The position numbers and the translations under genes were made by a program. Shown piece by piece: positions 19,371 to 61,977 of a DNA stretch of 64,000 nucleotides. Each line of letters opens with the position of its first letter. Position 1 is the first letter of the stretch. The notes under the pieces are model-generated. The model made no database searches and was not told the origin of the DNA. It was given only the letters and a program-made list of their open reading frames with translations. This stretch comes from an uncultured Candidatus Saccharibacteria bacterium (GTDB taxonomy: Bacteria; Patescibacteriota; Saccharimonadia; Saccharimonadales; Saccharimonadaceae). Location: NCBI GenBank assembly GCA_946548715.1, contig CAMNPZ010000002.1, positions 2,908 through 66,907 of the forward strand, given 5' to 3'.

Positions 19371-19949
19371 ATGTCTACAGGTGGAATAATAGCAATCGTA
19401 ATAGTCTTGGTGGTGTTGGCATTATTTGGGACTATTGTTGGTGCATATAATAGTTTGGTTAAACTGGACGAGCGAGTAAATGAGGCTTGGTCCGATATAA
19501 CTGTACAACTTAAGTATCGTGCGGATTTGATTCCGAACGTGGTGGAGACCGTGAAGGGTTATGCTAAGCACGAAAAGGAAACTTTCCAAATGGTCACCGA
19601 AGCTCGTACGGCTGCGATGGGCGCGAAAACTGTAAAGCAGGCGGCGGAGGCCGAGAAAGAAATGCAATCTGCACTTGGGCGGATTTTTGCGATTGCAGAG
19701 GCTTATCCAGAGCTTAAGGCGAACGAAAATTTTGTCAAGTTGCAAGAACAATTGCAAGACGTAGAGGATAAAATCCAAGCTGCACGTCGTTTTTACAATG
19801 CGGGTGCGAAAGAACTTAATACTAAGATTAAGACTTTCCCGACTAATTTGATTAATAATTTTGTTGGTCATTTCAAGATGCGTGAATATTTTGAGGTGGA
19901 AGAATCTGAAAAAGCACGCATCAAGGATGCTCCTGAAGTTAAGTTCTAA
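19371..19949 (+). CDS. lemA: LemA family protein
   Basis: N-terminal TM; YNSLV...AWSDITVQLKYRADLIPN; AYPELKANENF; AARRFYN. Confidence 0.95.
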   Translation: MSTGGIIAIVIVLVVLALFGTIVGAYNSLVKLDERVNEAWSDITVQLKYRADLIPNVVETVKGYAKHEKETFQMVTEARTAAMGAKTVKQAAEAEKEMQSALGRIFAIAEAYPELKANENFVKLQEQLQDVEDKIQAARRFYNAGAKELNTKIKTFPTNLINNFVGHFKMREYFEVEESEKARIKDAPEVKF

Positions 19950-20026
19950 CTATAATAATAAAGCGCTAGACTATGTTTTGAATTTATAGTTCGAACATAG
20001 TTTAAGCGTTTTAATAAAGGACTAAA

Positions 20027-20905: not shown

Positions 20906-21686
20906 TGGTTCCTCGCCGCATAAGTCTTTCAAGCGGACTTATCGGGAGGATTACGTCAGGGAATTGAATGTGCCTGGTATGGGGCAGCATATTTATGAAG
21001 CATTTCGGATATTTTGTGTGAATTGGAAAGTATTTGTGCCGTTCTTGGTATTGACTTGTGTTTTGGAGGCTTTGGCTGCACGATTAACTCGTGAAACGAC
21101 GGCGGTGTTTACGGTGCTGATTTTTTTGATGATATGGCTGGTGACGATTTTCTTGGTGCGGCATATTAAAGCTGGACATAAAGTGACTTTGAGAGATGGA
21201 TTATATAATGCGATGACGCCACTGATATCATCGCTGATTGTGTTTGTAATAATTGTGGTTGAGTGCGTTCCACTATTCTTATTGATTATTGCCTATTCTG
21301 CCGCCGTGAAGACGGAATTTTTGACGATGCCGTTTTATGCGTTAATGTTTTTGGGTTTTGCTGGGTTAATGGTAACAATTTCGGGGTATTTGCTGTCTTC
21401 GTCTTTGATTGCTTTGTTGGCGGTAAGTGCGCCGGGGATGTATCCACTCAAGGCATTGACGACGGCGGCGGAATTGATGATGGGGCGTAGGATTCGGTTT
21501 GTTCTGCGGCTCATTGCTTTGCTATTAGTTGTGGGTGTGATTTACGCAGTATTTATTTTGCCGTTAGCAGCGCTTAAAGTGCCTATGGAAGTATTGTCGG
21601 TGATTGCGGCGTTTGTGGGGTGTTTTGGTGCGATTTATGTGACGATTTATCTTTATCTGTATTATCGTTATTTATTGGATGCGTGA
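20886..21686 (+). CDS. Hypothetical polytopic membrane protein
   Basis: Multiple hydrophobic segments; overlaps the htpX end. Confidence 0.75.
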   Translation: MAKKSSNGSSPHKSFKRTYREDYVRELNVPGMGQHIYEAFRIFCVNWKVFVPFLVLTCVLEALAARLTRETTAVFTVLIFLMIWLVTIFLVRHIKAGHKVTLRDGLYNAMTPLISSLIVFVIIVVECVPLFLLIIAYSAAVKTEFLTMPFYALMFLGFAGLMVTISGYLLSSSLIALLAVSAPGMYPLKALTTAAELMMGRRIRFVLRLIALLLVVGVIYAVFILPLAALKVPMEVLSVIAAFVGCFGAIYVTIYLYLYYRYLLDA

Positions 21687-23822
<2,136 letters not shown>

Positions 23823-23838
23823 TATAATGAAACTGTGC

Positions 23839-23914
23839 CTGGGTGTAGCACAGTTGGTAGCGCGCGACGTTTGGGACGTCGAGGTCGCAGGTTCAAGTCC
23901 TGTCACCCAGACCA
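23839..23914 (+). tRNA. tRNA-Pro(TGG)
   Basis: ctgggtg/cacccag acceptor, loop tttggga, CCA. Confidence 0.97.
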
Positions 23915-23927
23915 TTTTTGTAGCTAG

Positions 23928-24004
23928 CTGGGATTGGCGCAGCTTGGTAGCGCGCACGCATGGGGTGCGTGAGGTCAGGAGTTCAAATCTCCTATCCCAG
24001 ACCA
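23928..24004 (+). tRNA. tRNA-Pro(GGG)
   Basis: ctgggat/atcccag acceptor, loop atggggt, CCA. Confidence 0.97.
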
Positions 24005-24014
24005 TGATATGTAT

Positions 24015-24090
24015 CAGGGTGTGGCGCAGTTGGTAGCGCGCAGCGTTCGGGACGCTGAGGTCGTCGGTTCAAGTCCGATCACCCTGACCA
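24015..24090 (+). tRNA. tRNA-Pro(CGG)
   Basis: cagggtg/caccctg acceptor, loop ttcggga, CCA. Confidence 0.97.
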
Positions 24091-24107
24091 TTCGAGCCAT
24101 TCGAATT

Positions 24108-24133
24108 AAAGACCGCTGATGCGGCTTTTTTTT
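24108..24133. terminator. Terminator between the tRNA-Pro cluster and convergent pcrA
   Basis: aaagaccgc-tgat-gcggctttttt. Confidence 0.6.
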
Positions 24134-24158
24134 GATTGCTATTGATAAAGCATCATAA

Positions 24159-26315
24159 TCACTCAAAAACTGGTAGATCATCGGGGAAGGGGTCGAAATC
24201 GGAGTCGGGAAAATCGGAATCGTTAAAGAAATCGTCGGTAAAATTGGGGTCGGTGAAGCCATCGCCATCTTGGTCGCGATAGCCGGCGGAGCCGTAAGGG
24301 GAGGCACCATAGGGGTCGTAGCCAAGTTCGGTGAGAAAACGGGAAGGCATACTGTAACTGCGAGAACCATAGGAATAACGAGACTGAGCATATGTAAGGA
24401 AGAGACGCTCGCGGGCGCGAGTCATGGCGACGTAGGCGAGACGACGTTCTTCTTCGAGCTCGGCTTCATTATCGTAGGCGCGTGAGCCTGGGAAAAGTCC
24501 TTCTTCCATACCAACAATGAAGACAACGGGGAATTCGAGCCCCTTGGCGGCGTGCATGGTCATGAGTGTGACGGAATTATGGCCGGATGCTTCATCGGTG
24601 CTAGACATTAGGGTGGCGTCGGCGAGGAATTCTGGTAGAGTGTCATATTCGGAAGCGTTGCTCGCTAGGACCTCGAGGTTTTGCATGCGATCTTCGGCGG
24701 CGGGAGTGCCGTCGTCGGTGAGAGTGCGAAAATCAAAGTAATCTATAACGTGCTTGACAATATCGCCAGGGTTGTCTTCGAGGTTAGTTTTTTTAATAAA
24801 ATTGATGAGGCGGAGTAGGGCGTTACGGGCTTTGGCGGAATTGAGGATACTGGGAAGATCAGGATTAGTGAGAACATTTGGTTCGTCGATAGAATCGATG
24901 GCGTCGAGGAGTTTCTTGACTGAGACTTCGCCGATGCCAGAAAGGACGTTACTACAAACGCGGGCGAGACTGACTTTGTCGCGCTGATTGATAAGAAGAC
25001 GAAGAATAGCCATGGCGTCTTTGACTTCTTTGCGGTCGTAGAAACGGACGCCGCCGATGATTTTGTAGGGTATATGGTAGCTTAAGAAGGCTTTTTCGAA
25101 GGCGTAGGATTGAGCGTTGGTGCGATAAAGAATGGCGAAATCGGAAAAGTCGGGGTATTCTTTCTGGAGGTTGAGGATTTTCATGGCGACGAAGGTGGCT
25201 TCGGCGGTTTCGTCGCTCAAATTTTCAATATCGACTGGCTCGCCGGCTTCGGCGTCAGTGAAGAGGGTTTTGTCGGTGCGGGTTTTGTTCTCGCGGATGA
25301 TTTTCTGTGAAGCGGCGAGGATGTTCTTGGTGGAGCGGTAGTTTTGTTCGAGTTTGATAACTTTGGCGCCAGGGAAATCTTTTTCGAAATTGAGAATATT
25401 GGTAAAATCGGCACCACGCCAAGAGTAGATAGATTGCCAATCGTCGCCGACGACGCAAATGTTACGGTCTTCGTTGACAAGTAGGCGGACGATGTTGTAT
25501 TGAACGAGGTTGGTATCTTGATATTCGTCGATGAGGATGTGCTGGAATTTGGTTTGCCATTTGGCGCGGATGTCGGGATGGTTTTGGAGTAGTTCGAGCT
25601 CTTTTAGAAGGAGGTCGTCAAAATCGAGAGCGGAAGCTTTGGCTTTTTCGGATTCGTAGCGAGCGAAGATTTTGGCGATGTTTTTCTGGTTGGGATAGAG
25701 AGTAGTGGCGGCGTAATCTTCGGCGGAGTGGCCTTGGTTTTTCTCGCTACTGATGATGGATTGGATGGATTTGGGCTTTAATTGTTTATCGCTGGCGAGA
25801 CCGAGGTCTTTGATGATGCGGCGGATGAGGGAGACTTGGTCGTCGGTGTCGTAAATGACGAAATTGCGATCGAGATCCAGTGCGTCGGCTTCGATGCGCA
25901 GAATTTTGACTGCAATGCTATGAAAGGTGCCCATGTATGGCATGAAAGAGCGTGGCGGATTAGACGGTGCGGCATCTATATCTTGACTCGGGGCAATGCG
26001 GAGCGCGGCAGCGCGAGAGTTAGCGCCGTCCGCCCGTGGCGACGGGCCGGACGGACGCGGCCCCGAGTGAGATGTAGATGCCGTAACGTGTAATAGATGC
26101 CATAATCGTTCGCGCATTTCATTGGCGGCTTTGTTGGTGAAAGTGACGGCAAGGATGCGATGTGGGTCGATGCCGTGGGTGATGAGATTAGCGATACGAT
26201 GGGTGAGAGTTTTAGTCTTGCCAGAACCAGCACCGGCCAGAATAAGTAGTGGTCCGGATAATGTTTTGACCGCCTGACGTTGAGCCGGATTTAATTCCTC
26301 CAGTATTTTGTCCAT
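24159..26315 (-). CDS. pcrA: UvrD/PcrA SF1 helicase carrying an in-frame palindromic insertion
   Basis: AGAGSGKT, DEYQDTN, VGDDWQSIY, LEQNYRS, TMHAAKGLEF, EERRLAYVAMTRA. Confidence 0.96.
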   Translation of the reverse strand: MDKILEELNPAQRQAVKTLSGPLLILAGAGSGKTKTLTHRIANLITHGIDPHRILAVTFTNKAANEMRERLWHLLHVTASTSHSGPRPSGPSPRADGANSRAAALRIAPSQDIDAAPSNPPRSFMPYMGTFHSIAVKILRIEADALDLDRNFVIYDTDDQVSLIRRIIKDLGLASDKQLKPKSIQSIISSEKNQGHSAEDYAATTLYPNQKNIAKIFARYESEKAKASALDFDDLLLKELELLQNHPDIRAKWQTKFQHILIDEYQDTNLVQYNIVRLLVNEDRNICVVGDDWQSIYSWRGADFTNILNFEKDFPGAKVIKLEQNYRSTKNILAASQKIIRENKTRTDKTLFTDAEAGEPVDIENLSDETAEATFVAMKILNLQKEYPDFSDFAILYRTNAQSYAFEKAFLSYHIPYKIIGGVRFYDRKEVKDAMAILRLLINQRDKVSLARVCSNVLSGIGEVSVKKLLDAIDSIDEPNVLTNPDLPSILNSAKARNALLRLINFIKKTNLEDNPGDIVKHVIDYFDFRTLTDDGTPAAEDRMQNLEVLASNASEYDTLPEFLADATLMSSTDEASGHNSVTLMTMHAAKGLEFPVVFIVGMEEGLFPGSRAYDNEAELEEERRLAYVAMTRARERLFLTYAQSRYSYGSRSYSMPSRFLTELGYDPYGASPYGSAGYRDQDGDGFTDPNFTDDFFNDSDFPDSDFDPFPDDLPVFE
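25970..26083 (-). mobile_element. In-frame palindromic element, copy in pcrA (sense to the gene)
   Basis: cccgtggcgacggg at 26033-26046 on +; arms cggcatctatatct / agatgtagatgccg. Confidence 0.85.
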
Positions 26316-26333
26316 GTATATAATTGTAGCATA

Positions 26334-27884
26334 TTAAATGCCAGTGAGTGGAGTAATGTCGGCGCCGAGGTGGCGAAGGCGGGCGGCGAAATCTTGGTAG
26401 CCGCGATTGATGGGATAGACATTGCGAAGGATGGATTGGCCGGGGGCGGCAAGCATGGCGATAAGGATGACAACGGCGGGGCGAAGGGCCTGCGGCGCAA
26501 CGAGTTCGGCGGGGCGCCAGTTGGTGGGGCCTTCGATATAGACGCGATGGGCATCGAGGAGTTCGACTTTGGCGTTGAGGTTGGTGAGTTCGGTGGTATA
26601 GACGGCGCGGTTCTCAAAGACCCAGTCATGGATAAGAGTGCGACCCTTGGCGACGGCGGCGATGACGGAGAAGAACGGAAGATTGTCGATATTGAGGCCA
26701 GGGAAAGGCATGGGGTGGATTTTGTCGACAGGGGCGATGAGGCTGGACTTGTGGATGGTGAGGTCGACGAGGCGGGTGCGGTCGTTGGTGGAAAGGTATT
26801 CTGGGGATTTGCTGATGTGGGCGCCCATGGATTTGAGGACTTCAAGTTCGATTTCGAGAAATTCGATGGGGGCGCGACGGATGGTGATTTCGGAATGGGT
26901 GACGAGGCCGGCGGCGATGAAACTCATGGCTTCGATGGGGTCTTCGGAAATATGGTAGTCGACGTCTTGATTGATGAACGGGCGGCCTTGGACGACAAGA
27001 CGGGTAGTGCCGATACCAGAGATTTTGACGCCGAGCTGTTCGAGGAAGAAACAAACATCTTGAACCATGTAGTTGGGCGAGGCGCCGACGATAGTGGTCT
27101 TGCCTGGGGCAAGAGCAGCGGCCATGAGGACGTTCTCGGTGACAGTGTCGCCGCGTTCGGTGAGGACGATGTAGCGGTCGTGGTATTTATGAAGAGTATC
27201 TTGCTTAACCTCGACTTCGTAGAAACCACTATTACTCTCGGCGTCGACGGTGAGACCGAAGGATTTGAGGGCTTGCAGATGAGGCTCGACGGTGCGAGTG
27301 CCGAGGGAACAGCCACCAGCGTAGGGGATGCGGAATTTGGGATAACGATGGAGGAGTGGTCCTAAGAACATGATAATGGAACGGGTGCGACGGGCAGCTT
27401 CGACGTCCATTTGGTCGAGTTTCAATTCGCGGGGTGAGATAATCTCTAGGTCGCGATGGCGGTTGGTCCAGTGACATTTGACACCGATAGACTCCAGAAC
27501 TTCGATAATGCGGAAGACTTCTTCGATGCGGGCGAGGTGGTGTAAGGTGGTCTTGCCAGTATTCAGAAGAGAAGCGCAAAGTAGGCCGACGGCGGCGTTC
27601 TTGGAGGTATTGATGGTAATCTCACCGTGCAACTCGTTGCCACCGCGGATGCGGAAACTCTGTCCTGCAGAGTCGTTAATAGAGAGGATTTGACTGCCTA
27701 AAGCTTCGGAGAGGCGCTTGATCATGTCGAGGGAGATGTTCTGGCCGCCCTTTTCGATGCGGTGGATGGCGGACTGGGATGAGCCAACGGCGTCGGCTAG
27801 TTCTTCCTGAGTCCAGCCTTTGTCGGTGCGCATTTGTTCGATGGTTTCGCCAATCACTTCTTGATATGTCTTCATTTTCTTCAT
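26334..27884 (-). CDS. murA: XRE-type HTH fused to UDP-N-acetylglucosamine 1-carboxyvinyltransferase
   Basis: N-terminal WTQEELADAVGSSQSAIHRIEKG; SKNAA, AGGCSLGTR, TENVLMAA, LRHLGADI. Confidence 0.9.
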   Translation of the reverse strand: MKKMKTYQEVIGETIEQMRTDKGWTQEELADAVGSSQSAIHRIEKGGQNISLDMIKRLSEALGSQILSINDSAGQSFRIRGGNELHGEITINTSKNAAVGLLCASLLNTGKTTLHHLARIEEVFRIIEVLESIGVKCHWTNRHRDLEIISPRELKLDQMDVEAARRTRSIIMFLGPLLHRYPKFRIPYAGGCSLGTRTVEPHLQALKSFGLTVDAESNSGFYEVEVKQDTLHKYHDRYIVLTERGDTVTENVLMAAALAPGKTTIVGASPNYMVQDVCFFLEQLGVKISGIGTTRLVVQGRPFINQDVDYHISEDPIEAMSFIAAGLVTHSEITIRRAPIEFLEIELEVLKSMGAHISKSPEYLSTNDRTRLVDLTIHKSSLIAPVDKIHPMPFPGLNIDNLPFFSVIAAVAKGRTLIHDWVFENRAVYTTELTNLNAKVELLDAHRVYIEGPTNWRPAELVAPQALRPAVVILIAMLAAPGQSILRNVYPINRGYQDFAARLRHLGADITPLTGI

Positions 27885-28048
27885 AATAATGAATATATCA
27901 CGGGATGAATAAAATGTAAAGAGTTGAAGAATAAAGGGATGGATGGCTTGTGGGACGAAAAAAGTTTTTCTGTTGCCAAAAATGATTAAGCTTGTGGTAT
28001 AATGGTAGAAAGCTTAATAATATTGCAATATTGATTAAAAACAAGGAA

Positions 28049-29998
28049 ATGGAGCCAATGGGTAGAAACTATACAAAGACAAATCTCATCATGCGTAGTA
28101 GCGTTAGTCTACTAATGCTGACTATGATTAGTGGGCTAGTATTAATTAGTAATAAGGCCTCCGCAGACTCATCGGCGGTATCTACGGCATCCATTACGGT
28201 ACCAGTGGCTTGTACGATGCGAGGAACGGGAGTGGACTCACATACGGCTACGCTCGCACCTAATACCTACTCTGGTGCTTCCGGCTCTGGATACGAAAAC
28301 GGCATCGGTAAAACTACTCTCACTGCTATATGTAATGATGATAATGGTTTCTCCATCTATGCTATAGGATACACTGGTAATTCATATGATTCAGAAAACC
28401 ATACTAAGCTAGTTGGTTCTACTACGGGTGGTACTATAGCTACTAAAGCTTATGCAAGTGGAGACACTACATCCAACTGGTCCATGAAACTAACCAAGGT
28501 CACTAACACATCTGAATCCTATAATCCACAGAACCTAACCATTCAAAGTGATACAGAAGGCTCATTCGATACATGGCACAGTATCCCATCTGCATATGCT
28601 AAAGTAGCAGAATACCACGCTAATACTGGTTCATCTACTACCGATACTACACTCGGCGTTAAACTAGAAACCACCTATGCAGCCTACATCTCATCCTCTC
28701 AGCCAGCCGATACTTATGTAGGACAAGTTAAATACACCATGGTGCATCCATATACAGAAGCACCATTACAACCACAAACTGCAACATCAGGATGTATTAA
28801 CTACTTCCCAAATGGCAGTAACGTAGATGGTACTATGGGCTGTCAACCAATCTCAAGTACTGATACATCCGCTACGCTTCTAGCTTCTAACTTCAGTAGA
28901 ACTGGCTATGGCTTTGCAGGTTGGTCTAACAAGTTTGATTATGCTACTAATCCAAATCAAGAAGGCATTAAGTTCTACGGCCCACAAGAAGATATAACCT
29001 TCACTGCAGGTGAATACACTGGCAGTAACAATGGTCTAGCTCTCTATGCTGTCTGGGTAAAAAGTGTAGGCAATCTTCAAGATACTGCCAAAGTTGCTAC
29101 ACTTTGTGGAACGGGAGCGGGTAGCTTAATCAAGGCCAATGAGGCTACCAATATCCTAAGCCAAAGTATTACTGCCCTTTCTGATTCTCGCGACAATAAT
29201 ACCTATGCCATCGCCAAACTAGCTGATGGTAAATGCTGGATGATTGAAAACTTGCGTCTAGACAACTCTGCCTCACTCACTCTCGCAAATACTAATAATC
29301 CGCTAAACGATGGCACTAATGTCACTCTCAAACATAGCTATTCAGATACCGAAACATATAACACTCTTTCTGCTTCACAAGATCCCACTACGACTGCATG
29401 GTGCCAATCCAATAGTGCTTCCTGCTATGATCAATCTATGCTATTTACTGGTAATACTACTAACCGTGCTTCCTATGAAACTGGAGCTACGATGATAAAT
29501 AATGACAATATCTATTCCTACGGCAACTACTACAACTGGTACTCCGCCACAGCAGGTAGAGGCGCATATAGCTTTAGCACTTACAATAATAGTGTCGCAG
29601 GCGACCTATGTCCTGCTGGTTGGCACCTACCAAAAGGTGGTGATAAATCAAATGAAGCTAACAACGAATTCTGGTCATTAGTAGTTACTGGTATTAATAA
29701 TGGCACAAATCCAGCTAATTATGAAAGTAGTACTACACCGTATTACACGGGTACTCCAGAAGGTACGGATGCTTCTAATAAAATGAGAGCTTATCCTAAC
29801 AATTTTGTCTATTCCGGCAACGTCTACAGTGGCTCGGTGTACAGTCGCGGCTCGAACGGCGGCTTCTGGTCGTCTACGGCGTACTCGTCCCGCAACGTCT
29901 ACTACCTGAGCCTGGGATCGTCCTACGCCGACACAGGCACATTCAACGCCAACAAGTATAACGGGAGGACAGTGCGCTGCGTCGCCTCCGGCGTTTAG
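28049..29998 (+). CDS. Secreted protein with C-terminal Fibrobacter succinogenes major paralogous (CLec-like) domain, paralogue 1; start revised to ATG 28049 or 28058
   Basis: Signal peptide; DSRDNNTYAIAKLADGKCWMIENLRL, YGNYYNWYSATAG, LCPAGWHLP, FWSST...VRCV. Confidence 0.85.
   Translation: MEPMGRNYTKTNLIMRSSVSLLMLTMISGLVLISNKASADSSAVSTASITVPVACTMRGTGVDSHTATLAPNTYSGASGSGYENGIGKTTLTAICNDDNGFSIYAIGYTGNSYDSENHTKLVGSTTGGTIATKAYASGDTTSNWSMKLTKVTNTSESYNPQNLTIQSDTEGSFDTWHSIPSAYAKVAEYHANTGSSTTDTTLGVKLETTYAAYISSSQPADTYVGQVKYTMVHPYTEAPLQPQTATSGCINYFPNGSNVDGTMGCQPISSTDTSATLLASNFSRTGYGFAGWSNKFDYATNPNQEGIKFYGPQEDITFTAGEYTGSNNGLALYAVWVKSVGNLQDTAKVATLCGTGAGSLIKANEATNILSQSITALSDSRDNNTYAIAKLADGKCWMIENLRLDNSASLTLANTNNPLNDGTNVTLKHSYSDTETYNTLSASQDPTTTAWCQSNSASCYDQSMLFTGNTTNRASYETGATMINNDNIYSYGNYYNWYSATAGRGAYSFSTYNNSVAGDLCPAGWHLPKGGDKSNEANNEFWSLVVTGINNGTNPANYESSTTPYYTGTPEGTDASNKMRAYPNNFVYSGNVYSGSVYSRGSNGGFWSSTAYSSRNVYYLSLGSSYADTGTFNANKYNGRTVRCVASGV
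29813..29998 (+). other. Putative DGR variable region (VR)
   Basis: Abrupt switch from T-ending to C/G-ending codons in the last ~60 codons of a CLec-type domain; followed by hairpins. Confidence 0.6.
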
Positions 29999-30033
29999 CG
30001 TTTCTCTGTCGTGCCGTTCCAGAGTCCAGGAAA

Positions 30034-30119
30034 GTTCAAAGGTTTGTCGTAAGACAAACACTTTGAACGGGGCCGCTGCTCTGCGGCGGCCCCACCCTTG
30101 CTTGCTTTGCAAGCAAGGG
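30034..30119. other. Three tandem hairpins downstream of the putative VR
   Basis: gttcaaaggtttgtc-gtaa-gacaaacactttgaac (30034-30068); ggggccgctgc-tct-gcggcggcccc (30069-30093); cccttgcttgc-ttt-gcaagcaaggg (30095-30119). Confidence 0.85.
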
Positions 30120-30184
30120 AAACGGACTTAAAATGCGAAAATGGAGTTTCGCGATTTCGGATTGTTTGATGCTATAATTGGTAC

Positions 30185-31237
30185 ATGAAAACGATTAGAG
30201 ATATAGATGTCAAAAATAAAATAATACTAATGCGGGTGGATTATAATGTGCCATTGAAAGACGGAAAAGTGACGGATGATTTGCGGATTCGCGCGAGTGT
30301 GCCGACGATTCAGATGCTGCTTGAAAAAGGCGCGAAGCGAGTGGTACTAATATCTCATCTGGGGCGGCCAGAGGGGAAGAGAGATAGGAAGTTTTCTTTG
30401 TCGCCGGTAGCGAAGGTGCTGGAGAAACTATTAAAAGTAGGGTTGGTGGGATTTTACGACTTACCGAAGCAAGGTGAGCAGATTGCGATTCCGGATTCAT
30501 TTAAAGTAGCATTGCTACAGAACTTGCGGTTTGATTCGGGCGAAGAGGGGAACTCGGCGGAGTTTATTAAGAATATCATCGATGCAGTAGGGGCGGAAGT
30601 ATATGTGCAAGATGGATTTGCGGTAGTGCACCGGGCGCATGCTTCGACGGACGCGGTGGCGAAATTCTTGCCAGTATATGCAGGGTTATTGGTGGAGAAG
30701 GAAGTAAAAAATTTGTCGAAGGTGATTGACCAACCTGAGAAACCGGTGCTTTTGATTATCGGTGGGGCAAAAGTAGATGATAAACAACCATTGATTGAGA
30801 AATTTGAGAAATTAGCTGACAATATCGTGGTAGGTGGCAAGATTGCGGCGGATGGGTATAAGTCGAAGTCGAAGAAGATATATGTGGCGGAAGATTTTGA
30901 CGAAGATGGTAAGGGGGCAAAGCTTGACATTGGTCCATTGTCGACGGCTAAACTAGCAGGAATGATTACAGACGCGAAGATGATTATTTGGAACGGGTTG
31001 CTCGGGTATGCAGAAGACCCAGCTTACGCAACAGCGTCGACGATTACGGCGGAGATGATGGGGGAACATTTGTCGGCGGAGACAGTGGTGTGTGGGGGTG
31101 ATACTACCGGGTTCGTAGAGAACTTAATGAAGGAGCATCCGAATTTGTCGTATTCGCTGGTGTCGACAGGGGGAGGAGCGGCACTCGAATTCTTGCTTGG
31201 CAATAAGCTGCCGGGAATCGAGGCTATTAAAGCTTAG
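30185..31237 (+). CDS. pgk: Phosphoglycerate kinase (compact, 350 aa)
   Basis: RVDYNVP, SHLGRP, NLRF, HRAHAS, GGAKV, STGGGAALEFL. Confidence 0.95.
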   Translation: MKTIRDIDVKNKIILMRVDYNVPLKDGKVTDDLRIRASVPTIQMLLEKGAKRVVLISHLGRPEGKRDRKFSLSPVAKVLEKLLKVGLVGFYDLPKQGEQIAIPDSFKVALLQNLRFDSGEEGNSAEFIKNIIDAVGAEVYVQDGFAVVHRAHASTDAVAKFLPVYAGLLVEKEVKNLSKVIDQPEKPVLLIIGGAKVDDKQPLIEKFEKLADNIVVGGKIAADGYKSKSKKIYVAEDFDEDGKGAKLDIGPLSTAKLAGMITDAKMIIWNGLLGYAEDPAYATASTITAEMMGEHLSAETVVCGGDTTGFVENLMKEHPNLSYSLVSTGGGAALEFLLGNKLPGIEAIKA

Positions 31238-31243
31238 CGTAGC

Positions 31244-32677
31244 CTAGACTGTACGGACTTTGATAGTGTCGGTGCCGAATTTGTCGCGGTCGCCAGAAAC
31301 GATGACAGTGGTAAGATCTTTTTCGCCGTCTTCGAGTTGGAGGTAGCCGCCTTTTAATTCCTTCGCGAGATCGAGACCGAATTCGGGTGAGTAGGGGCGG
31401 ACGAAGGCGGAGTTGGCGTAGCATAGTGCTAGTTGATTAGCAACGCGAGGATTGGTGGTGACAGAGACGATGGGGAGATTGGGGCGCTGGGCGGCCATGG
31501 TGGTGGCAGTAACACCGGAAGCGGTTTGACAGACGATGGCATCGGCGCGGATTGTCTCGGCAAGACGGGCGGCAGCGCTAGAAATAGCATCGTAGACTTC
31601 GGATTTCTCACCGACCGGATCGTGAGCGATAGGGGCGATGCGGGAATGATTTTGAGTATAGAGGATGACTTTCTTCATAGCCTTGACAGTCTCTAGAGGG
31701 TATTTGCCGTTCGCAGTTTCGTCGGAAAGCATAACGGTGTCGGCGCCTTGAATGACGGCGGTGGCAACATCGGAAACTTCGGCGCGGGTGGGTTCTGGTG
31801 AGTCGACCATGCTGGAAAGCATTTGGGTGGCAACGATGCAGAGCTTGGCGTGGGCGCGGCAGAGAGCAATGAGTTTGCGTTGAATGATCGGGACGACCTC
31901 GGCGCCAGCCTCGACGGCCATGTCGCCGCGCGCGACCATGATGCCGTCAGCAGCTTCGACGATTTCTTCGAGATGTTTCTCGGATTCGATGGCTTTTTTG
32001 GTTTCGATTTTCGCGACTACTTTGGCGGTGGAACCGAGGGATAGTAACATTTGCTTGAGTTTGATAATGTCGCTGGCGGACTGAACGAAGGAAAGGGAAA
32101 CGTAGTCGTAATCTTCGTTGGCGCCAACTTCGATGTCGTGGAGGTCTTTTTCGGTTAAGATGTCGCCGCCAAAATCGGTGTCAGGGAGGTTGAGGCCTTT
32201 GCGGCTCATGATGAAGCCGTCGTTTTCGATTGTAATCTTGATGGCTGTGTCTGATACGATTTCGGTGATGGTGGCTTTGACTTTACCATCAAAGAGAGAA
32301 AGAGGCTCGCCGGGCTTGACTTTGCTGGCGAGATTATACTGAACTGGTACGGTCATGCCGCCATCGTGTTCGAATCTTTCGTCGGATTCGAGAATGAGCT
32401 CGTCGCCTTTTTTGAGGTCGAGATGATTATCTTTTAACATGCCGAGGCGGATTTTGGGGCCTTGGAGATCTTGAAGGATGGCGACGGAGCGACCTTTTTT
32501 CTTGGCGGCGGCGCGAATCCACTCGATTTGCTGGTGACGTTCCTCGTCGGAGCCGTGCGAGCAGTTAAGACGACAGCCGTTGACGCCGGCCATGATGACT
32601 TGTTCGATTAATTCGGGGCTGTTCGTGGCAGGCCCGATGGTTGCTAAGATTTTAGTACGTTTAAATATTTTACTCAT
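31244..32677 (-). CDS. pyk: Pyruvate kinase
   Basis: TKILATIGP, RLNCSHG, DLQGPKIR, MVARGDM, ATQML, MLSDET. Confidence 0.97.
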   Translation of the reverse strand: MSKIFKRTKILATIGPATNSPELIEQVIMAGVNGCRLNCSHGSDEERHQQIEWIRAAAKKKGRSVAILQDLQGPKIRLGMLKDNHLDLKKGDELILESDERFEHDGGMTVPVQYNLASKVKPGEPLSLFDGKVKATITEIVSDTAIKITIENDGFIMSRKGLNLPDTDFGGDILTEKDLHDIEVGANEDYDYVSLSFVQSASDIIKLKQMLLSLGSTAKVVAKIETKKAIESEKHLEEIVEAADGIMVARGDMAVEAGAEVVPIIQRKLIALCRAHAKLCIVATQMLSSMVDSPEPTRAEVSDVATAVIQGADTVMLSDETANGKYPLETVKAMKKVILYTQNHSRIAPIAHDPVGEKSEVYDAISSAAARLAETIRADAIVCQTASGVTATTMAAQRPNLPIVSVTTNPRVANQLALCYANSAFVRPYSPEFGLDLAKELKGGYLQLEDGEKDLTTVIVSGDRDKFGTDTIKVRTV

Positions 32678-32719
32678 ATTAATATCTTATCATATGTCGG
32701 TTTTTATGGTAAGATAAAT

Positions 32720-33175
32720 ATGGATATGGTTAAAAAAAGGAAAAGACCTAATTATTTAAGAAAAGGTGATGCCGTGTTGGCGCGACGGGTAGTGCTTGGT
32801 GTAATCGTTGCAGCAATTGTGGTAGTGATAGTGGGATTGGTGGTGAGTTTTTTCTGCAATAACGAGCGGATAACACAGAAAAAAATTGACGAGATGGCGC
32901 GAGAATACTACGAAGGTTTTGTTTATCCGAATTTGATAAGTGGGTCAATGTCGCAGTCCGAGATTGACGATGTGATGAAGAGATACGAAAAATGGGGGTT
33001 TGCACCAGTGGCGCTGCGTCAACTATTATTGTATGATGGGCAAAAAAATATGAAGGATGGTGGGTTTGTGAAAAATTATTGTGATGAGAATGAGACAAAG
33101 ATGAAGGTTTATCCGGAAGCTCCGTATGATAAAAAATCATATCGGATAGAGTATGAATATAAGTGTGAGTATTAA
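32720..33175 (+). CDS. Hypothetical single-pass membrane protein
   Basis: Basic N-terminus, one TM, C-terminal Cys pair. Confidence 0.7.
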   Translation: MDMVKKRKRPNYLRKGDAVLARRVVLGVIVAAIVVVIVGLVVSFFCNNERITQKKIDEMAREYYEGFVYPNLISGSMSQSEIDDVMKRYEKWGFAPVALRQLLLYDGQKNMKDGGFVKNYCDENETKMKVYPEAPYDKKSYRIEYEYKCEY

Positions 33176-33212
33176 AAGTATATCCCTTTAGGATTTTCTG
33201 CGTTAGTAATAG

Positions 33213-34001
33213 CTATTTCACTATTCTTCCGCCAGTTAGTTCTTCAAGATACTTTTCTTGGATTGGCGCAACGCCATGACCATGCTGGAACATGTCCATA
33301 ATGTGAGAGAATGAGATTTTATCTTCCATGAATGCTATCACGGCCACGTGAGTTAATAGAGTATTTTTGCGACCAATTTTACCATCCCATTTCTTGTTAT
33401 TTTCAACCTCATCACGGTAATAGTATTTACAGTCTTCATTTTGAGCAAGATAATCATTATAAGCAAGATATGGCAATAGCGAAACCCCTCGTAAGGCTTC
33501 TGTCGAAATGTACACTCCTTCAATAACATCTGGTTGCGGGTCATATTCGTACCAAGATAAAGCTATTTCACCAGTATTAACAATATTGCCATTTTGGTCT
33601 AAATCTTCGTATTGTAGCGTACGCTTGGTGAGTTTAGTATCGAGCATATAGGCAATTCTGCAATACAAAGTTGCAATATACGAAAGGTCAACATTGATGT
33701 CTCTAAGCGAATACAGGTCGTCCCAAACATCTTTGAAACTCAAATCTTTTAGCCACTCTCCATTAGATAGTTGCATCTTGGGTCTAAAATCCCACGGTCT
33801 TGGTGATTGAACTCTTGCTGATTCTTTACCTGGATATTGAATATAAAGCTTCTCTCCGGTAGGAAACTCTTTCATCAAGAGTCGTCGTTCTATATTGCCG
33901 AATTCTAACCCAGTTTTACTCAATGATGAAAATGCTTTTATATTGTAAAGCTTTTTCTCCACGGCCTCAGCGGTGAGGGCTCGGTCAATTATTATGCTCA
34001 T
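33213..34001 (-). CDS. Putative type II restriction endonuclease (by context)
   Basis: Directly downstream of and overlapping a C-protein gene, divergent from a C5 methyltransferase; low GC; family not recognised. Confidence 0.55.
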   Translation of the reverse strand: MSIIIDRALTAEAVEKKLYNIKAFSSLSKTGLEFGNIERRLLMKEFPTGEKLYIQYPGKESARVQSPRPWDFRPKMQLSNGEWLKDLSFKDVWDDLYSLRDINVDLSYIATLYCRIAYMLDTKLTKRTLQYEDLDQNGNIVNTGEIALSWYEYDPQPDVIEGVYISTEALRGVSLLPYLAYNDYLAQNEDCKYYYRDEVENNKKWDGKIGRKNTLLTHVAVIAFMEDKISFSHIMDMFQHGHGVAPIQEKYLEELTGGRIVK

Positions 34002-34222
34002 TGTCGCTCCTTATTATTGTCGATTAAAAGCTTGTACGATTCAATTCCTAACGCATCAGCAATACGTTGAATGTTCTCGAGCGAGACATTGCGTTGAAAA
34101 CATTCCACGCTGCCAATATAAGTACGATGCAGCCCGCATTTCTCGGCAAATTTCTCTTGAGAGAGACCGAGTTCGGTCCTATATTTTCTTAAATTAGTCC
34201 CAAATACTTTGATGATATCCAT
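33998..34222 (-). CDS. XRE HTH controller (C) protein
   Basis: FGTNLRKYRTELGLSQEKFAEKCGLHRTYIGSVE...NVSLENIQRIADAL. Confidence 0.9.
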   Translation of the reverse strand: MDIIKVFGTNLRKYRTELGLSQEKFAEKCGLHRTYIGSVECFQRNVSLENIQRIADALGIESYKLLIDNNKERQ

Positions 34223-34268
34223 AGACTCTGTTTCTCCTAGGTTATATTCTCATGATAACTCGAGTGCC

Positions 34269-34294
34269 GATTTTAAGTCTACAGATTATAAGTA
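34269..34294 (-). promoter_or_regulatory. C-box operator of the C.PvuII/C.BamHI type
   Basis: Minus strand TACTTATAATCTGTAGACTTAAAATC resembles GACT-N3-AGTC-TGTA-GACT-N3-AGTC, upstream of the C gene. Confidence 0.75.
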
Positions 34295-34372
34295 GCATTG
34301 TATAAGTAGTATTGTATCTTTAACAAAAAAGGAAAATCTGTTATAATAGACGCAATAAAAAGCTGAGGTATT

Positions 34373-35593
34373 ATGAAAAAACAATTATGTGAGTTATTTG
34401 CTGGTGTTGGCGGGTTTAGATTGGGGTTAGATAGGCTAGATAGTGGATGGAAGACTGTTTGGTTTAGCCAGTGGGAACCTGGCGCTAGTAAGCAGTGGGC
34501 TCACGATTGCTATGTGTCACACTTTGGTGATATAAAAGACTTGTCTGGCGAATATACGACTGGTATTGACATTGCGGAAGTAAATAAGAAGAATATTCCT
34601 GATCATACGTTAATCGTCGGCGGTTTTCCGTGCCAAGATTACTCTGTCGCTCATACGCTTGCGTCTTCTAAGGGTATTCAGGGTAAAAAGGGCGTGCTCT
34701 GGTGGCAAATATATGAAATACTGAAGGTAAAGAAAACTCCATTTTGCTTATTTGAAAATGTGGATAGGCTTTTAAAGTCACCTGCAAAACAAAGGGGTAG
34801 AGATTTCGGGATAATGCTTTCTTGTTTCGCTTCGCTTGGATATAGCGTAGAGTGGAGAGTGGTAAACGCTGCAGAATATGGGGCCGCACAAAGGAGACGA
34901 CGTACTTTTATATTTGCTTATAATAAGAAAACGAATCATTATACAAATGTAAAAGGTATCTCGATGGAAGATATGCTTTTAAAAGAAGGTTTTTTTGCTA
35001 CAGTGTTTCCTATTAAAAGCCACGAAGCGCTTAGGGAAGGTGAGGTAAGTAAAGATATTGGCAATGTATCCGATAGCTTTAAGTTTGATTTTGGAAATGC
35101 AGGGATAATGCGTGATGGCAAAATTATGACTGCAAAGGTACGACCAGCAGAAGAAGCCCCAACTAAAATTGGGCAAATACTAGAAAATAAGAAGCTCGAT
35201 GAAAAGTACTTTATTACTGATGAAAAGATGCCAAAATGGACTTATCTTAAAGGGGCCAAGAAAATTGAGAGGACCACTTCTGCGGGTTTTAAATACACTT
35301 TTTCTGAAGGACCAATTGCATTTCCAGACCCATGGGATAGGCCTAGTAGAACTATGCTGACCAGTGAATCAACTTTGAACCGTAGCACACATGTTGTTGA
35401 AGATAAAAAAACGCATAAGTTGCGTTTAATAACGCCGATAGAAGCAGAACGATTACAGGGTTTTGATGATGACTGGACCAATACTGGTATGCCAGACCGA
35501 ATGCGTTATTTCTGCATGGGTAATGCTCTTGTTGTTCCTATGATTACTAGAATGGGCAAACAGCTAGATATTATTTTCAGGAATGAACCTTAG
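34373..35593 (+). CDS. DNA cytosine-5 methyltransferase (resembles the M.Sau3AI group)
   Basis: ELFAGVGGF motif I, GGFPCQDY motif IV, ENVDRLL motif VI, QRRRRTF motif VIII, MGNALVV motif X. Confidence 0.95.
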   Translation: MKKQLCELFAGVGGFRLGLDRLDSGWKTVWFSQWEPGASKQWAHDCYVSHFGDIKDLSGEYTTGIDIAEVNKKNIPDHTLIVGGFPCQDYSVAHTLASSKGIQGKKGVLWWQIYEILKVKKTPFCLFENVDRLLKSPAKQRGRDFGIMLSCFASLGYSVEWRVVNAAEYGAAQRRRRTFIFAYNKKTNHYTNVKGISMEDMLLKEGFFATVFPIKSHEALREGEVSKDIGNVSDSFKFDFGNAGIMRDGKIMTAKVRPAEEAPTKIGQILENKKLDEKYFITDEKMPKWTYLKGAKKIERTTSAGFKYTFSEGPIAFPDPWDRPSRTMLTSESTLNRSTHVVEDKKTHKLRLITPIEAERLQGFDDDWTNTGMPDRMRYFCMGNALVVPMITRMGKQLDIIFRNEP

Positions 35594-35618
35594 TTTATTT
35601 TTGGTTCTAACTCTGATG

Positions 35619-35878
35619 CGGTGAACTCGGCGGAGCTTGTTTCGCGCTTCTCGTCACCAATAAAAACAAGACGCAAGCGTCTTCTTTTTATTGGTGATCT
35701 CGGCGGGAGCTTGTTTCGCGCTTTGCGCGAAACAATTCGCAGGGCGTCGTCTCGAAATATCCAAAACTAGTTTTGGATATTTGTTCGGCTCCTATTGCGA
35801 GCGAACCATACGGGTTCGCCCCCTGCCAAAATTGTCAGAATAAAAAAATAAAACCCAAAGGGTTTATTTTTTTTATTC
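35619..35878. repeat. Hairpin-rich region with two extra copies of the tRNA-Glu 3' end and a module shared with the intragenic palindromic elements
   Basis: tggtgatctcggcgggag (35692-35709) vs tRNA tggcgatctcggcgggag (35879-35896); degenerate copy 35619-35635; module 35737-35800. Confidence 0.85.
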
Positions 35879-35953
35879 TGGCGATCTCGGCGGGAGTCGA
35901 ACCCGCGTTGTCGGGATGAAAACCCGATGTACTAACCGTTATACTACGAGACC
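35879..35953 (-). tRNA. tRNA-Glu(TTC)
   Basis: ggtctcgtagtataacggttagtacatcgggttttcatcccgacaacgcgggttcgactcccgccgagatcgcca. Confidence 0.97.
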
Positions 35954-36006
35954 GTGAGATAATTATAGCAAATATTGGTGAAAAAAGCAACGTGTGATAA
36001 AATGAG

Positions 36007-37956
36007 ATGAGTAAGGAGATAAGAGTGGTAGAACAAAATAAGATGTCTAACAAGACTAAGGGGCGACCCAATAATCAAAATAACTATTCTAATGCGGTGA
36101 GAAGTATTATCTTTACGATTGTATTGATATGTTTTGCGGCGTTTTTGATTACAAATGTGAATTATGGTGCAGTGCAGAAAACAGAAGTGCCGATTTCGGA
36201 AGTTATCCAAAGAGCAAACGATCCGGAAGGTAATATTGAGAAGATTACAGTTATTGGTAACAATCTCGATATAACTTTGAAAGGAGAAAAACAACCGACG
36301 CAGACATCACGTAAAGACGGAGCGGGGACGCTTTATGATCAGGGTTTGGTGAATTATTGCGAAGATTTGGAAGGAGATGCGCTGTCGGAATGTCAAAAGA
36401 AGTATCCTGTGATTGAATACCAAGAGGATATTGATGTGATGGGAATTATACTAAACGTAGCACTAACGGTATTACCGATTCTTGCATTGATATTGTTTTT
36501 CTCTTGGATGATGAAACAGGCGAACGCAGCAAATGCAAGCTCGATGTCGTTTGGTAAGTCAAAAGCAAAACTATACGGACCAGATAAGAAAAAGGTAACC
36601 TTTAAGGACGTGGCTGGGAACGAGTCGGCGAAGCAAGATTTGACTGAGATTGTTGATTTTCTAAAAAGCCCCAAGAAATATGAGAAATTAGGCGCGAAGA
36701 TTCCACGGGGCGTGCTGCTAGCTGGTGACCCGGGTACCGGTAAGACTTTGATGGCGCGTGCGGTGGCAGGAGAGGCGAATGTGCCGTTTTTCTCGATTTC
36801 GGGTTCGGAATTTGCAGAGATGTTTGTGGGCGTGGGTGCTTCGAGAGTGCGAGATTTGTTTTCGCGGGCGAAGAAAAATGCGCCGTCAATTATCTTTATT
36901 GATGAGATTGATGCGGTGGCGCATAAGCGTGATGCGCGGGGCGGTGCGGGTCGTGAAGACGAACAGACTTTGAATCAAATATTGGTCGAGATGGATGGGT
37001 TTGATAATGATTCGGGTGTGATTGTGATGGCGGCGACGAACCGGGTGGATATGCTTGATAAGGCGTTGTTACGTCCGGGACGGTTTGATAGACATGTGAA
37101 TGTGGCTTTGCCGGAACGAAAAGACAGGCTTGAGATACTGAAAGTACATTTCAAAGGTAAGCCGGTGGAGGCTGACGTGGATCTTGAGTCGCTAGCGAAG
37201 AAGACAGCTGGGTCGTCGGGGGCGGATTTGGCTAATATTGCGAACGAAGCTGCGATTACGGCGGCGCGTGAGGGACATAAGGCGATTTCGAATAAAGATG
37301 TGGTGGAAGCATTTGAGCGTGTGGCGATTGGTCCAGAACGAAAATCAAAGGTGATGAATGATAAGGAACGTAAGATTACGGCTTACCATGAGGCTGGACA
37401 TGCGATAGTGGGCCATGTGCTACCCGATTCTGATCCGGTACACAAAGTGACGATTATTCCGCGTGGTGCGACTGGTGGTGTGACTTGGTTCTTGCCGCCA
37501 GAGGATAGGAGCTACAAGAATATATACGAGCTAAAAGACATTCTGGCGCGTGCGATGGGTGGTCGCGTGGCGGAGAAAATCATATTCGGCGCTGATGCGG
37601 TGACGACTGGTGCTTCTTCGGATCTTAAGAATGTAGCGTCACTAGCTAAATCAATGATTGTCGAAGAAGGTATGGGTGAGGGGCTAAGGAATCTGGTATT
37701 TCCAGAAGGCGATATGGGTTACTACACGATTACGACTGGTAAGCCATATTCAGAGAAAACTTCGGAGTTGATTGATGCGGAAATTAAGAAGTTGTCGGAT
37801 GAAGCAGCAAAGCGGGCAGAAGAAGTTTTGAAGGCTAACAAAGCGGTCTTAGACAAACTGGCCGAGGAATTGTTGGCGCATGAGACTCTCGAAGAGGCTG
37901 AGCTAGAGCCGATTTTGAAGCCGGCGAAGTTGCCAACTGTGGCTAAGTTACATTAA
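36007..37956 (+). CDS. ftsH: ATP-dependent zinc metalloprotease FtsH
   Basis: Two TMs, [32 protein letters not shown]. Confidence 0.97.
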
Positions 37957-61894: not shown

Positions 61895-61977
61895 TACACA
61901 TTTTCCGACCGAAAAAGGTGAGAATTTACACATTTTCCGACCGAAAAAGGTGAGAATTTACACATTTTCCGACCGAA
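61895..61977. repeat. 32-bp tandem repeat, 2.6 copies
   Basis: tacacattttccgaccgaaaaaggtgagaatt at 61895, 61927 and partial at 61959. Confidence 0.95.

Follow-up and report, generated by a model that had tools for sequence, protein, structure and literature searches.

A predicted diversity-generating retroelement target without an adjacent cassette in a surface protein gene of Candidatus Saccharibacteria

The 3′ end of a FISUMP-domain gene from an uncultured Candidatus Saccharibacteria bacterium is, judged by comparison with related loci, a genuine variable region (VR) of a diversity-generating retroelement (DGR), spanning positions 29803–30022 of the 64,000-nt stretch of DNA analyzed here (the window). 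The cassette that follows the syntenic gene in a relative is absent at this locus, both in the window and in a ~95% identical strain. We consider it somewhat probable that the VR is a real DGR target that has become an orphan and is no longer overwritten. No other prokaryotic system for the targeted hypermutation of proteins is known, and DGRs abound particularly in CPR bacteria attached to host cells.

The target gene and its protein

The gene and its VR have the following coordinates:

28058–29998, + strand: target gene, 646 aa (protein P0001), from the ORF list and its translation
29803–30022, + strand: VR, homologous to the template repeat (TR) of a related DGR and extending beyond the stop codon at 29996–29998
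29819–29962, + strand: mutable core, with ~23 codons that are AAC/AAT in the TRs of three related loci (L121, L122 and L125)

The P0001 sequence is identical to the product of the window gene, a secreted FISUMP-domain surface protein of rumen or gut Candidatus Saccharibacteria. From its N terminus, the protein comprises a hydrophobic helix (signal or anchor) and beta-rich domains, and it ends in a FISUMP domain; it also contains a weak Listeria-Bacteroides-type repeat. TIGR02145 (FISUMP) scores 62.3 bits over aa 481–643 against a cutoff of 41.65; Pfam PF09603 scores 24.2, under its cutoff of 33.9. The full-length AF2 model includes a helix at residues 7–30 and has pLDDT >90 across aa 490–646; a model of the FISUMP domain alone is of low confidence (pLDDT 38). 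A Foldseek search of the PDB with the full model returned no match at E ≤ 0.001, and the top match in a BFVD fold search was a phage FISUMP protein (E = 1 × 10−7). We take the FISUMP domain to be a CLec-type fold (C-lectin Pfam clan). Its paralogues form a multi-copy secreted family, with three members in the window and six on one related contig. A second possible ATG for the target gene lies at 28049.

Signature of the variable region

The switch from T-ending to C/G-ending codons that the original prediction described for the last ~60 codons is borne out by third-position counts, which are T 239, A 152, C 139 and G 57 in the gene body (587 codons) and C 37, G 15, T 6 and A 4 in the last 62 codons (chi-square p = 4.5 × 10−13). 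GC3 is correspondingly 0.85 in 29813–29995 versus 0.33 in the body. When the VR end is compared codon by codon with 63883–63999 in paralogue 3, 13 codons are identical, 16 differ in other ways, and 10 form NNC pairs, exactly the ten pairs previously listed as differing at positions 1–2 while keeping C at position 3. The region proposed as a DGR target is likewise real, with an extent (29803–30022) slightly wider than first drawn: the L121 TR (12392–12612) aligns to it with 85% identity (blastn), and three related loci share its scaffold, with each VR there departing from its paired TR at adenines alone.

In those loci (L121, the closest NCBI relative, L122 and L125), the VR has the same scaffold as the window VR and is paired with its TR. 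The L121 TR and its own VR show 22 differences, 22/22 at TR adenines, and TR/VR differences inside the repeat are likewise at TR adenines alone in L122 and L125. The L121 RT contains RVT_1 and the DGR motif IGNLTSQ. Each TR in the relatives comes with a promoter of its own and a conserved 5′ leader of ~100 nt, and it is convergent to the RT; the accessory protein (259–318 aa) has no Pfam or NCBIfam match. In the window, the ~23 mutable codons of the core read NNC (a few NNT), six of them remaining AAC, and variation falls at codon positions 1–2 of AAC-type codons with the third base fixed. Among related contigs from four metagenomes, 23 of the 35 varying sites lie at TR adenines (odds ratio 7, p = 6 × 10−7), and ~120 homologues show a constant scaffold with hypervariable slots.

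In the proposed mechanism, the RT would copy TR RNA and misincorporate opposite adenines, and the cDNA would replace the VR (mutagenic retrohoming). Comparison with the relatives shows the trace of this process, NNC codons at template AAC together with the template's GC-rich scaffold. The cassette responsible lies directly behind the syntenic gene in the related genome, where it is made up of a promoter and leader, the TR, a convergent RT, and an accessory gene.

Two further members of the family lie downstream in the window:

55881–57374, + strand: paralogue 2, with a FISUMP-like end, ordinary AT-rich codons and a degenerate scaffold
62092–64000, + strand: paralogue 3 (P0058), 656 aa, leaving the window, with a type-B VR-like end from 63883

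The family has two VR scaffolds, type A in the target gene and type B in paralogue 3, which fits the earlier idea of two templates. Paralogue 3 has a GC3 of 0.67 in its VR-like end and 0.35 in its body. Paralogue 2, with a GC3 of 0.33 in its FISUMP-like end, looks like an old, fully ameliorated copy, and paralogues 3 and then 2 look like progressively older copies.

Absence of the cassette

A complete DGR follows the syntenic gene in L121 and comprises a VR, the same hairpins, a promoter, a TR, an RT, and an accessory gene. Synteny blocks and a three-way alignment match the window to L121 (L121 10118–12021 corresponding to 28196–30122, and L121 15008–18057 to 30143–33176) except for a clean absence of 2986 bp:

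30123–30142, no strand: junction, ~20 window-specific bases in place of the relative's ~3.0 kb
30185–31237, + strand: pgk (phosphoglycerate kinase), from the ORF list; the syntenic L121 gene has PF00162 (PGK)

At the junction, the ~3.0 kb of L121 hold a hairpin 4, the promoter, leader, TR, RT, and the gene for a 259-aa accessory protein. Hairpin 3 of the window runs almost straight into the region upstream of pgk, the gene 3′ of the cassette in L121. A 1311-nt contig of the ~95% identical strain (runs X20/21/24) covers 30009–30700 without a large indel. Because this strain, found in other metagenomes, has the same junction, the junction is not a misassembly. Collapse of VR and TR during assembly is rejected as an explanation, as the window retains the hairpins located between the two and independent contigs share the junction.

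The original prediction held that neither an RT nor a template repeat lies within the window, and four approaches agree. A tblastn search with the L121 RT and accessory protein found no DGR-type RT and no accessory gene in the 64 kb; blastn with the VR returned only the VR itself and a weak match to paralogue 3; an A-aware degenerate pattern matched the VR alone; and the density of TR-like AAC/AAT codons per 150 nt reached a maximum of 11 codons, versus 19 in true TRs. Among the best 120 homologues of the RT, none comes from a contig of 79,161 nt, the length of the contig to which the window belongs. In a public collection of genome contigs, the A-aware pattern (C→M, G→R, T→W), which as a degenerate pattern of this type needs fixed non-A bases, gave at least 120 loci, all of them poly-A runs among the matches listed. 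A TR-type pattern for the 3′ half had no match in JGI metagenomes or IMG/VR. Over public collections, the central TR pattern found one locus, the fossil cassette L127, and no cognate TR. A database search with the VR as protein found no near-identical copy (best 70% identity), and no public run contains this strain, the best recovery being 2/12 words (0.17) for the VR and 0.28 of words for the flanks.

Predicted homing elements at the 3′ end of the target gene

The VR ends in a tail that is followed by a boundary motif and three hairpins:

29963–30022, + strand: IMH-like invariant tail, where VR equals TR in L121 and L122
30023–30033, + strand: degenerate copy of the boundary motif (AGTCC-AGGAAAG), its last base common with hairpin 1
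30034–30068, + strand: hairpin 1, 15-bp stem with one bulge and a GTAA loop
30069–30093, + strand: hairpin 2, GC-rich 11-bp stem
30095–30119, + strand: hairpin 3, 11-bp stem

Both the IMH-like tail and the hairpins had been predicted, and both hold: VR and TR are identical through the tail in the relatives, and folding as DNA yields three strong hairpins after the stop codon (−43.4 kcal/mol, z = −8.9 versus shuffles). The window thus has an IMH-like 3′ element followed by an inverted repeat, with a tail and boundary motif that are degenerate relative to five canonical copies. Canonical tails are near-identical across the five loci. The window tail carries a private 1-nt deletion, a T missing after 30008, where L121, L127 and L129 read TCTCTGTTCGTGCC and the window reads TCTCTGTCGTGCC; the relevant contig in runs X20/21/24 has this T. 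The boundary motif past VR and TR is AGCCCTAGGAAYG in L121, L122, L127 and L129 and AACCCTAGGAATG in L125. Relative to the window, the ~95% identical strain carries the T after 30027 and an A>T change at 30033, so that its motif reads GGAAT. Tail and boundary motif of the window together carry four private changes, comprising two 1-nt deletions and two substitutions, and the two deletions change the distance to hairpin 1.

The three hairpins are kept in three related loci, with compensatory changes in 17/36 pairs. L121 and L129 share hairpin 1 with the window at 100% identity, and compensatory changes maintain it in L122 and L125; hairpins 2 and 3 preserve their pairing with compensatory changes in L121, L122 and L125. 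An Rfam search of L121 gave no family for its hairpins or TR leader. Given this conservation and the Bordetella phage model, the tail and three hairpins probably act in cis to designate the VR as the recipient, and hairpin 1 is a candidate for a DGR target-recognition hairpin or cruciform.

Private changes and the state of the variable region

The window VR differs from the L121 TR by 19 mismatches at TR adenines, 13 other substitutions, and one 1-nt deletion elsewhere. Several of these departures are also present in the L122 TR, and the L121 and L122 TRs combined leave 10 VR positions unexplained, the indel region included. Private non-adenine changes occur at 29898 (gTc, Ala to Val), 29928 (gCc, Val to Ala) and 29933 (Aca, Pro to Thr), with further ones at 29917 (ggA) and 29941 (acA). 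At 29898, 29928 and 29933, the canonical base is found in all three TRs and in every related contig from the four metagenomes. The private changes in the VR and its 3′ homing elements point to loss of homing and not to continued action in trans. An orphan VR of this kind would be gathering ordinary mutations in its scaffold codons and homing tail and would be too young to have shed its GC-rich codon signature.

Decay of the cassette does occur in this clade. L127 lacks an RT and its TR is degenerate, but its VR, hairpins, promoter, and leader persist. In L128, a GC-rich VR of type A occupies the paralogue-3 locus and lacks tail, hairpins, and cassette. An orphaned VR is favored by the scaffold match to L121, L122 and L125, the clean absence of the cassette, the private changes, the cassette decay elsewhere in the clade, and the older paralogues. 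Some observations count against it. The active L121 VR has the same GC3 (0.85) as the window VR, and any orphaning must therefore be recent. GC3 was dropped as a decay clock, as the active L125 VR has a GC3 of just 0.56. The private changes could also sit in this genome's own TR, given that the TRs of L121 and L122 are mutually only 85% identical, and CPR DGRs are reported to have multiple non-A substitutions often (PMC5758913).

It is possible, if doubtful, that the VR is a remote (trans) target, still being rewritten by a cassette at another locus whose TR holds the same 'private' bases. DGRs are able to act on non-adjacent and distant targets: in one survey, 45 of 372 had non-adjacent targets and 10 had targets >100 kb away (PMC5758913). 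The cassette also occupies different sites in different genomes of the clade (the PGK locus in L121, the L27 locus in L129, the HisRS locus in L125, and beside recombinases in L122), which likewise weighs against an orphan. The undiminished GC3 of the VR, the complete identity of hairpin 1 to that of L121, and the continued pairing of hairpins 2 and 3 would all be expected of a live target, as would a VR that is unique among the runs and proteins searched. In samples of the ~95% identical strain, with the same cassette-less junction and flanks ~95% identical, every VR-like contig is at least ~15% from the window VR, which could mean that diversification continued after a shared cassette loss. 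Remoteness was, however, an assumption of the original prediction; the cassette is adjacent in L121, and exactly that ~3 kb is missing in the window. A distant cassette also has to be reconciled with the searches above, which found no TR or RT in the 64 kb and no 79,161-nt contig among the best 120 RT homologues, and with three scaffold residues that are conserved across three TRs and altered solely here. The four private changes in the homing tail, two of them deletions that shift the spacing to hairpin 1, argue in the same direction, and each related cassette has one perfectly matching VR within the visible DNA. CPR DGRs, moreover, tend to have one target, with remote targets only in another lineage (PMC5758913).

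We regard it as improbable that the diversified 3′ end is an import, written at a cassette-linked copy in a paralogue or strain and brought here by homologous recombination or gene conversion. Exchange of this kind would suit the mosaic structure of the target gene, in which blocks of 50–60% and 90–100% identity to L121 alternate, with 100% identity over 29746–29805, immediately 5′ of the VR. It would also suit P0002, the closest relative by protein, which occupies a different paralogue locus with a cassette behind it; the type-A VR of L128, found at the paralogue-3 locus without tail or hairpins; and P0030 and P0114, which have an identical VR despite bodies of 81% and 72% identity to P0058. 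The analysis found no donor copy, however, and the VR, tail, and three hairpins run collinear with L121 as far as the deletion, for which vertical descent with cassette loss is simpler. A broader scheme, which we think unlikely, is that one cassette diversifies a 'master' FISUMP module, and that paralogue recombination or cassette hopping spreads and freezes the diversified modules. A fresh VR without a cassette would then be a step in a two-tier system that varies surface adhesins by retrohoming and gene conversion; in a lesser version, a cassette at another paralogue locus may act on the VR in trans. An origin unrelated to DGRs, with the NNC pattern and codon shift arising from ordinary paralogue divergence or local composition, has in its favor only the lack of a TR or RT in the window and is so improbable as to be refuted for practical purposes. 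Against a bona fide TR, the VR shows 85% identity and 19 mismatches on TR adenines; its scaffold, tail, and hairpins are common to four cassette-linked VRs, and the composition test gives p = 4.5 × 10−13.

Relation to known systems

The known working of DGRs is unchanged by these findings. DGRs of CPR/Patescibacteria have been surveyed (PMC5758913) and include 'DGR clade 2' (PMC8144416). As in those systems, this is a chromosomal DGR of a small-genome episymbiont lineage, with a VR at the 3′ end of the target and past its stop codon, an inverted repeat 3′ of the VR and, in the relatives, an AAC-rich TR, TR/VR differences at adenines only, and an identical IMH-like tail. Unlike them, the window has the recipient half alone, comprising the VR, tail, and hairpins. 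The relatives, in turn, stand apart by the promoter and leader of their TR, its convergence with the RT, and their unmatched accessory protein.

[quoted passage not shown] The window differs in having three consecutive hairpins instead of one, and in a target that is a FISUMP domain and not Mtd. Since VR equals TR through the tail in the relatives, unlike in BPP-1, discrimination must lie downstream, in the AGCCCTAGGAAYG motif and the hairpins. DGRs of the Treponema denticola and Legionella type provide the precedent for a VR that has no cassette beside it and can yet be diversified in trans (PMC5758913). There, a TR in the same genome matches the remote VR at all non-adenine positions, whereas in the window the VR alone is seen.

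Most FISUMP proteins are not DGR-linked. The target gene product resembles the Fibrobacter succinogenes major paralogous proteins for which the family is named (TIGR02145/PF09603) in belonging to a set of multi-copy secreted paralogues, and it differs from them in the DGR scaffold within its last ~60 residues.

The same target gene has its cassette in L121 and L129, a decaying one in L127, and none in the window, a clean natural 'before and after' that offers a way to date the loss of the VR signature once homing stops. For annotation, the series cautions that a perfect-looking VR is no proof of an active DGR. It also reveals constrained cis elements, namely the boundary motif and the three covarying hairpins.

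A DGR variable region at the 3′ end of a FISUMP gene

By its sequence, window 29803–30022 is a variable region (VR) of a diversity-generating retroelement (DGR). It closes the gene for a FISUMP protein (paralogue 1), and the features of this locus are:

27992–29998, + strand: ORF whose 3′ end carries the VR; the ATG start at 28058 gives 646 aa
30034–30068, 30069–30093 and 30095–30119: hairpins 1, 2 and 3 (−43.4 kcal/mol, z = −8.9)
30185–31237: phosphoglycerate kinase gene (pgk)

The 646-aa product matches database entry P0001 exactly. A hydrophobic N-terminal helix (aa 7–30) is followed by beta-rich domains and a C-terminal FISUMP domain (aa 481–643; TIGR02145, 62.3 bits, cutoff 41.65); Pfam PF09603 scored under its family cutoff. 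Among viral folds, a phage FISUMP protein matches best (E = 1e-7). Named homologues belong to Candidatus Saccharibacteria MAGs, and related DNA in public runs comes chiefly from gut, rumen, manure and other animal-associated metagenomes. The public run search found no run with this strain, and the protein database search no protein carrying the window VR.

The original prediction described a switch from T-ending to C- or G-ending codons near the gene end, and this is borne out: third positions are 41% T, 24% C and 10% G in the gene body and 60% C, 24% G and 10% T in the last 62 codons (p = 4.5e-13 versus the body). Its list of ten codon pairs that differ from paralogue 3 at positions 1 and 2 while keeping C3 proved exact on re-comparison. 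About 120 homologues share a constant scaffold interrupted by hypervariable slots; it has two versions, type A in the target gene (FVYSG.V..GSV..RGS.G.FWSSTA.SS..AY.L.L.SS.V.PGT....KY.G..VRCVA) and type B in, e.g., paralogue 3 (FLYSG.F..SSA...). The VR is 85% identical to the template repeat (TR) of locus L121 in a related genome, and in a pairwise alignment 19 of the mismatches fall on TR adenines. Of the 35 sites that vary among related contigs from four metagenomes, 23 lie on TR adenines (p = 6e-7). The scaffold and the adenine-only pattern of related cassettes uphold the predicted status of the gene end as a DGR target; that the region is no DGR feature at all seems to us extremely improbable. 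DGR targets of this kind have already been described in CPR bacteria (PMC5758913, PMC8144416).

DGR cassettes in related genomes

The closest NCBI relative of the target protein, P0004 (76% aa identity), is encoded at L121 in MAG GCA_017433245.1, which is syntenic with window 19750–36700. Here, the gene is followed 3′ by:

four hairpins, the first three as in the window
an extended −10 promoter
leader, ~290 nt
TR, 221 nt, same strand as the gene
reverse transcriptase (RT), 409 aa, opposite strand, RVT_1, motif IGNLTSQ
accessory protein, 259 aa, opposite strand, without family match

At this locus 22 positions distinguish TR from VR, and each of them is an adenine in the TR. Loci L122 (RT 78% identical) and L124/L125 (RT 74% identical) share this scaffold and again show TR/VR differences at adenines only. 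Related DGRs place the TR under its own extended −10 promoter (TGnTATAAT) with a conserved leader of ~100 nt (GCTAATAAGTAGATTCGGAAAAGGAATGATAGATTAAGTTACTATCATCGTCCGA...GGGCTCAGAGTC.CAC). Because the TR has its own promoter and faces the RT and accessory genes in convergent orientation, the template RNA would be a separate transcript. An Rfam search returned no family for the leader, which may be a DGR RNA element not yet described. This arrangement in the relatives, with promoter, leader and convergent RT gene, is mildly new. The stretches with these features are L121 12080–12700, L125 ~11230–11620 (reverse strand), L127 4760–5170 and L129 7480–7561.

The VRs and TRs of the relatives match each other through the stop codon as far as ...CCGTTCCAG. 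Beyond this boundary all VRs continue with AGCCCTAGGAAYG (AACCCTAGGAATG in L125) and then the hairpins, and every TR runs into different sequence. The IMH-like tail and three hairpins predicted after the stop are real and conserved; two-sided changes maintain 17 of the 36 hairpin pairs (window, L121, L122, L125). Tail and hairpins probably mark the recipient, by analogy with the inverted repeat that Bordetella and Legionella DGRs require for efficient homing (PMC5758913). That the boundary motif and the triple hairpin are conserved is also mildly new.

Two cassettes have further neighbors. Directly upstream of the accessory-RT-TR cassette, L122 5349–8557 encodes two large serine recombinases (Resolvase, Recombinase and Zn_ribbon_recom domains), and an AAA_14/DUF4143 gene is inserted between VR and TR; a mobile element may carry this cassette. 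A short ORF fragment beside the L121 cassette (14780–14940, …IKEGEVWWCSVGMNVGIEMCGKG…) may resemble a PemK/MazF-type toxin N-terminus.

A missing cassette at the pgk junction

As the original prediction stated, a search of the 64-kb window turned up no RT and no template repeat. L121 10118–12021 aligns with window 28196–30122 and L121 15008–18057 with window 30143–33176; 2986 bp of L121 (hairpin 4, promoter, leader, TR, RT and accessory gene) correspond to about 20 unrelated bases, and pgk comes after this junction. A contig about 95% identical spans 30009–30700 through the same junction in metagenome runs X20, X21 and X24. Contigs in these samples break at 29813 and near 29997–30009, the VR borders, where VR-like sequences would be expected to cause branching in the assembly graph. 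Assembly collapse of the VR onto a TR was rejected, as the hairpins between VR and TR are still present.

We lean, with slightly better than even confidence, towards the window VR being the orphan of a lost cassette. Compared jointly with the L121 and L122 TRs, the window VR has seven substitutions and a 1-nt deletion near 30006–30008 that cannot be traced to a shared base or a TR adenine. Five of the seven occur in none of three TRs:

29898: gTc (Ala to Val)
29928: gCc (Val to Ala)
29933: Aca (Pro to Thr)
29917: ggA
29941: acA

Every related contig of runs X20–X24 has the canonical base at 29898, 29928 and 29933. All three TRs conserve the residues hit (A of AY; V and P of V.PGT), as do most homologues on inspection by eye. 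A T is missing after 30008, and the boundary motif reads AGTCC-AGGAAAG versus the canonical AGCCCTAGGAAYG; tail and motif together hold four private changes, and hairpin 1 lies two bases nearer. Canonical versions are retained at five other loci and in the ~95% strain. Repeated homing would wipe private VR changes unless the template has them as well. That proviso matters for a possible but less probable reading, in which a remote cassette rewrites the window VR in trans: the L121 and L122 TRs are just 85% identical, so the private bases could stem from an unseen TR, and several deviations from the L121 TR do occur in that of L122. Non-A substitutions are reported as frequent in CPR DGRs, and trans action is established among DGRs generally (PMC5758913). 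Related genomes carry the cassette at four different places, including one beside two serine recombinases and one at the paralogue-3 locus, where it follows the gene of the closest relative. GC3 in the window VR (0.85) equals that of the active L121 VR. Every VR-like contig from samples of the ~95% strain is at least about 15% away from the window VR; if these contigs are orthologous, rewriting would have gone on after the shared cassette loss.

Cassette decay, consistent with an orphaned VR, is seen within the clade. L127 2678–6146 (JGI contig JAEEGL010109968.1) is a fossil cassette that keeps VR, hairpins, promoter and leader; its TR is half-degenerate and no longer matches the canonical VR, RT and accessory gene are gone, and a typA/bipA-like GTPase gene comes next. 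The resulting series of cassette-plus, cassette-decaying and cassette-minus forms of one orthologous gene is mildly new. L128 7820–8080 (P0008) has a GC-rich type A VR at the paralogue-3 locus (L27), with no canonical tail, boundary motif, hairpins or cassette, which suggests that VR modules shift between paralogue loci by recombination. For the window VR itself, such an import strikes us as improbable.

Paralogues and neighboring loci

Paralogue 3 (62092–64000, P0058) has a type B scaffold ending ...SIRCTVSAGT, is hypervariable among its own homologues and has an intermediate GC3 (0.67); this scaffold implies that the clade has a second type of template. In the FISUMP paralogue 2 (55881–57374; GC3 0.33), the C-terminal VR-like region uses ordinary AT-rich codons, its scaffold is degenerate (...WWSSTHYASFDSQYGLYVMPAYIEADRGTKYEGRTLRCLVAN), and it probably represents a former VR that is old and has fully ameliorated. 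Both paralogues look like older stages. At L126, no cassette follows the orthologue of paralogue 3. Synteny downstream of paralogue 3 extends to HisRS, about 12 kb off (L126 11909–12184 versus L125 11715–14975), and L125 carries a DGR cassette and target immediately past HisRS; speculatively, the window's contig (79,161 nt) might, beyond the 64 kb, end close to such a site.

Window 23919–24172 lacks a gene that L121 (4182–6284) has between the DNA ligase/tRNA and UvrD genes; its product is membrane-anchored, 700 aa long and a faint FISUMP match. A perfect tandem repeat (61895–61977; 32-nt unit TACACATTTTCCGACCGAAAAAGGTGAGAATT, 2.6 copies) lies just upstream of the paralogue 3 promoter region and is absent upstream of paralogue 1. 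The upstream region common to both (27979–28060 and 62023–62100; GCTTGTGGTATAATGGTA.AAAGCTTAATA.TATTGC.ATAT...) comprises an extended −10 promoter and a conserved 5′ leader preceding the start codon.
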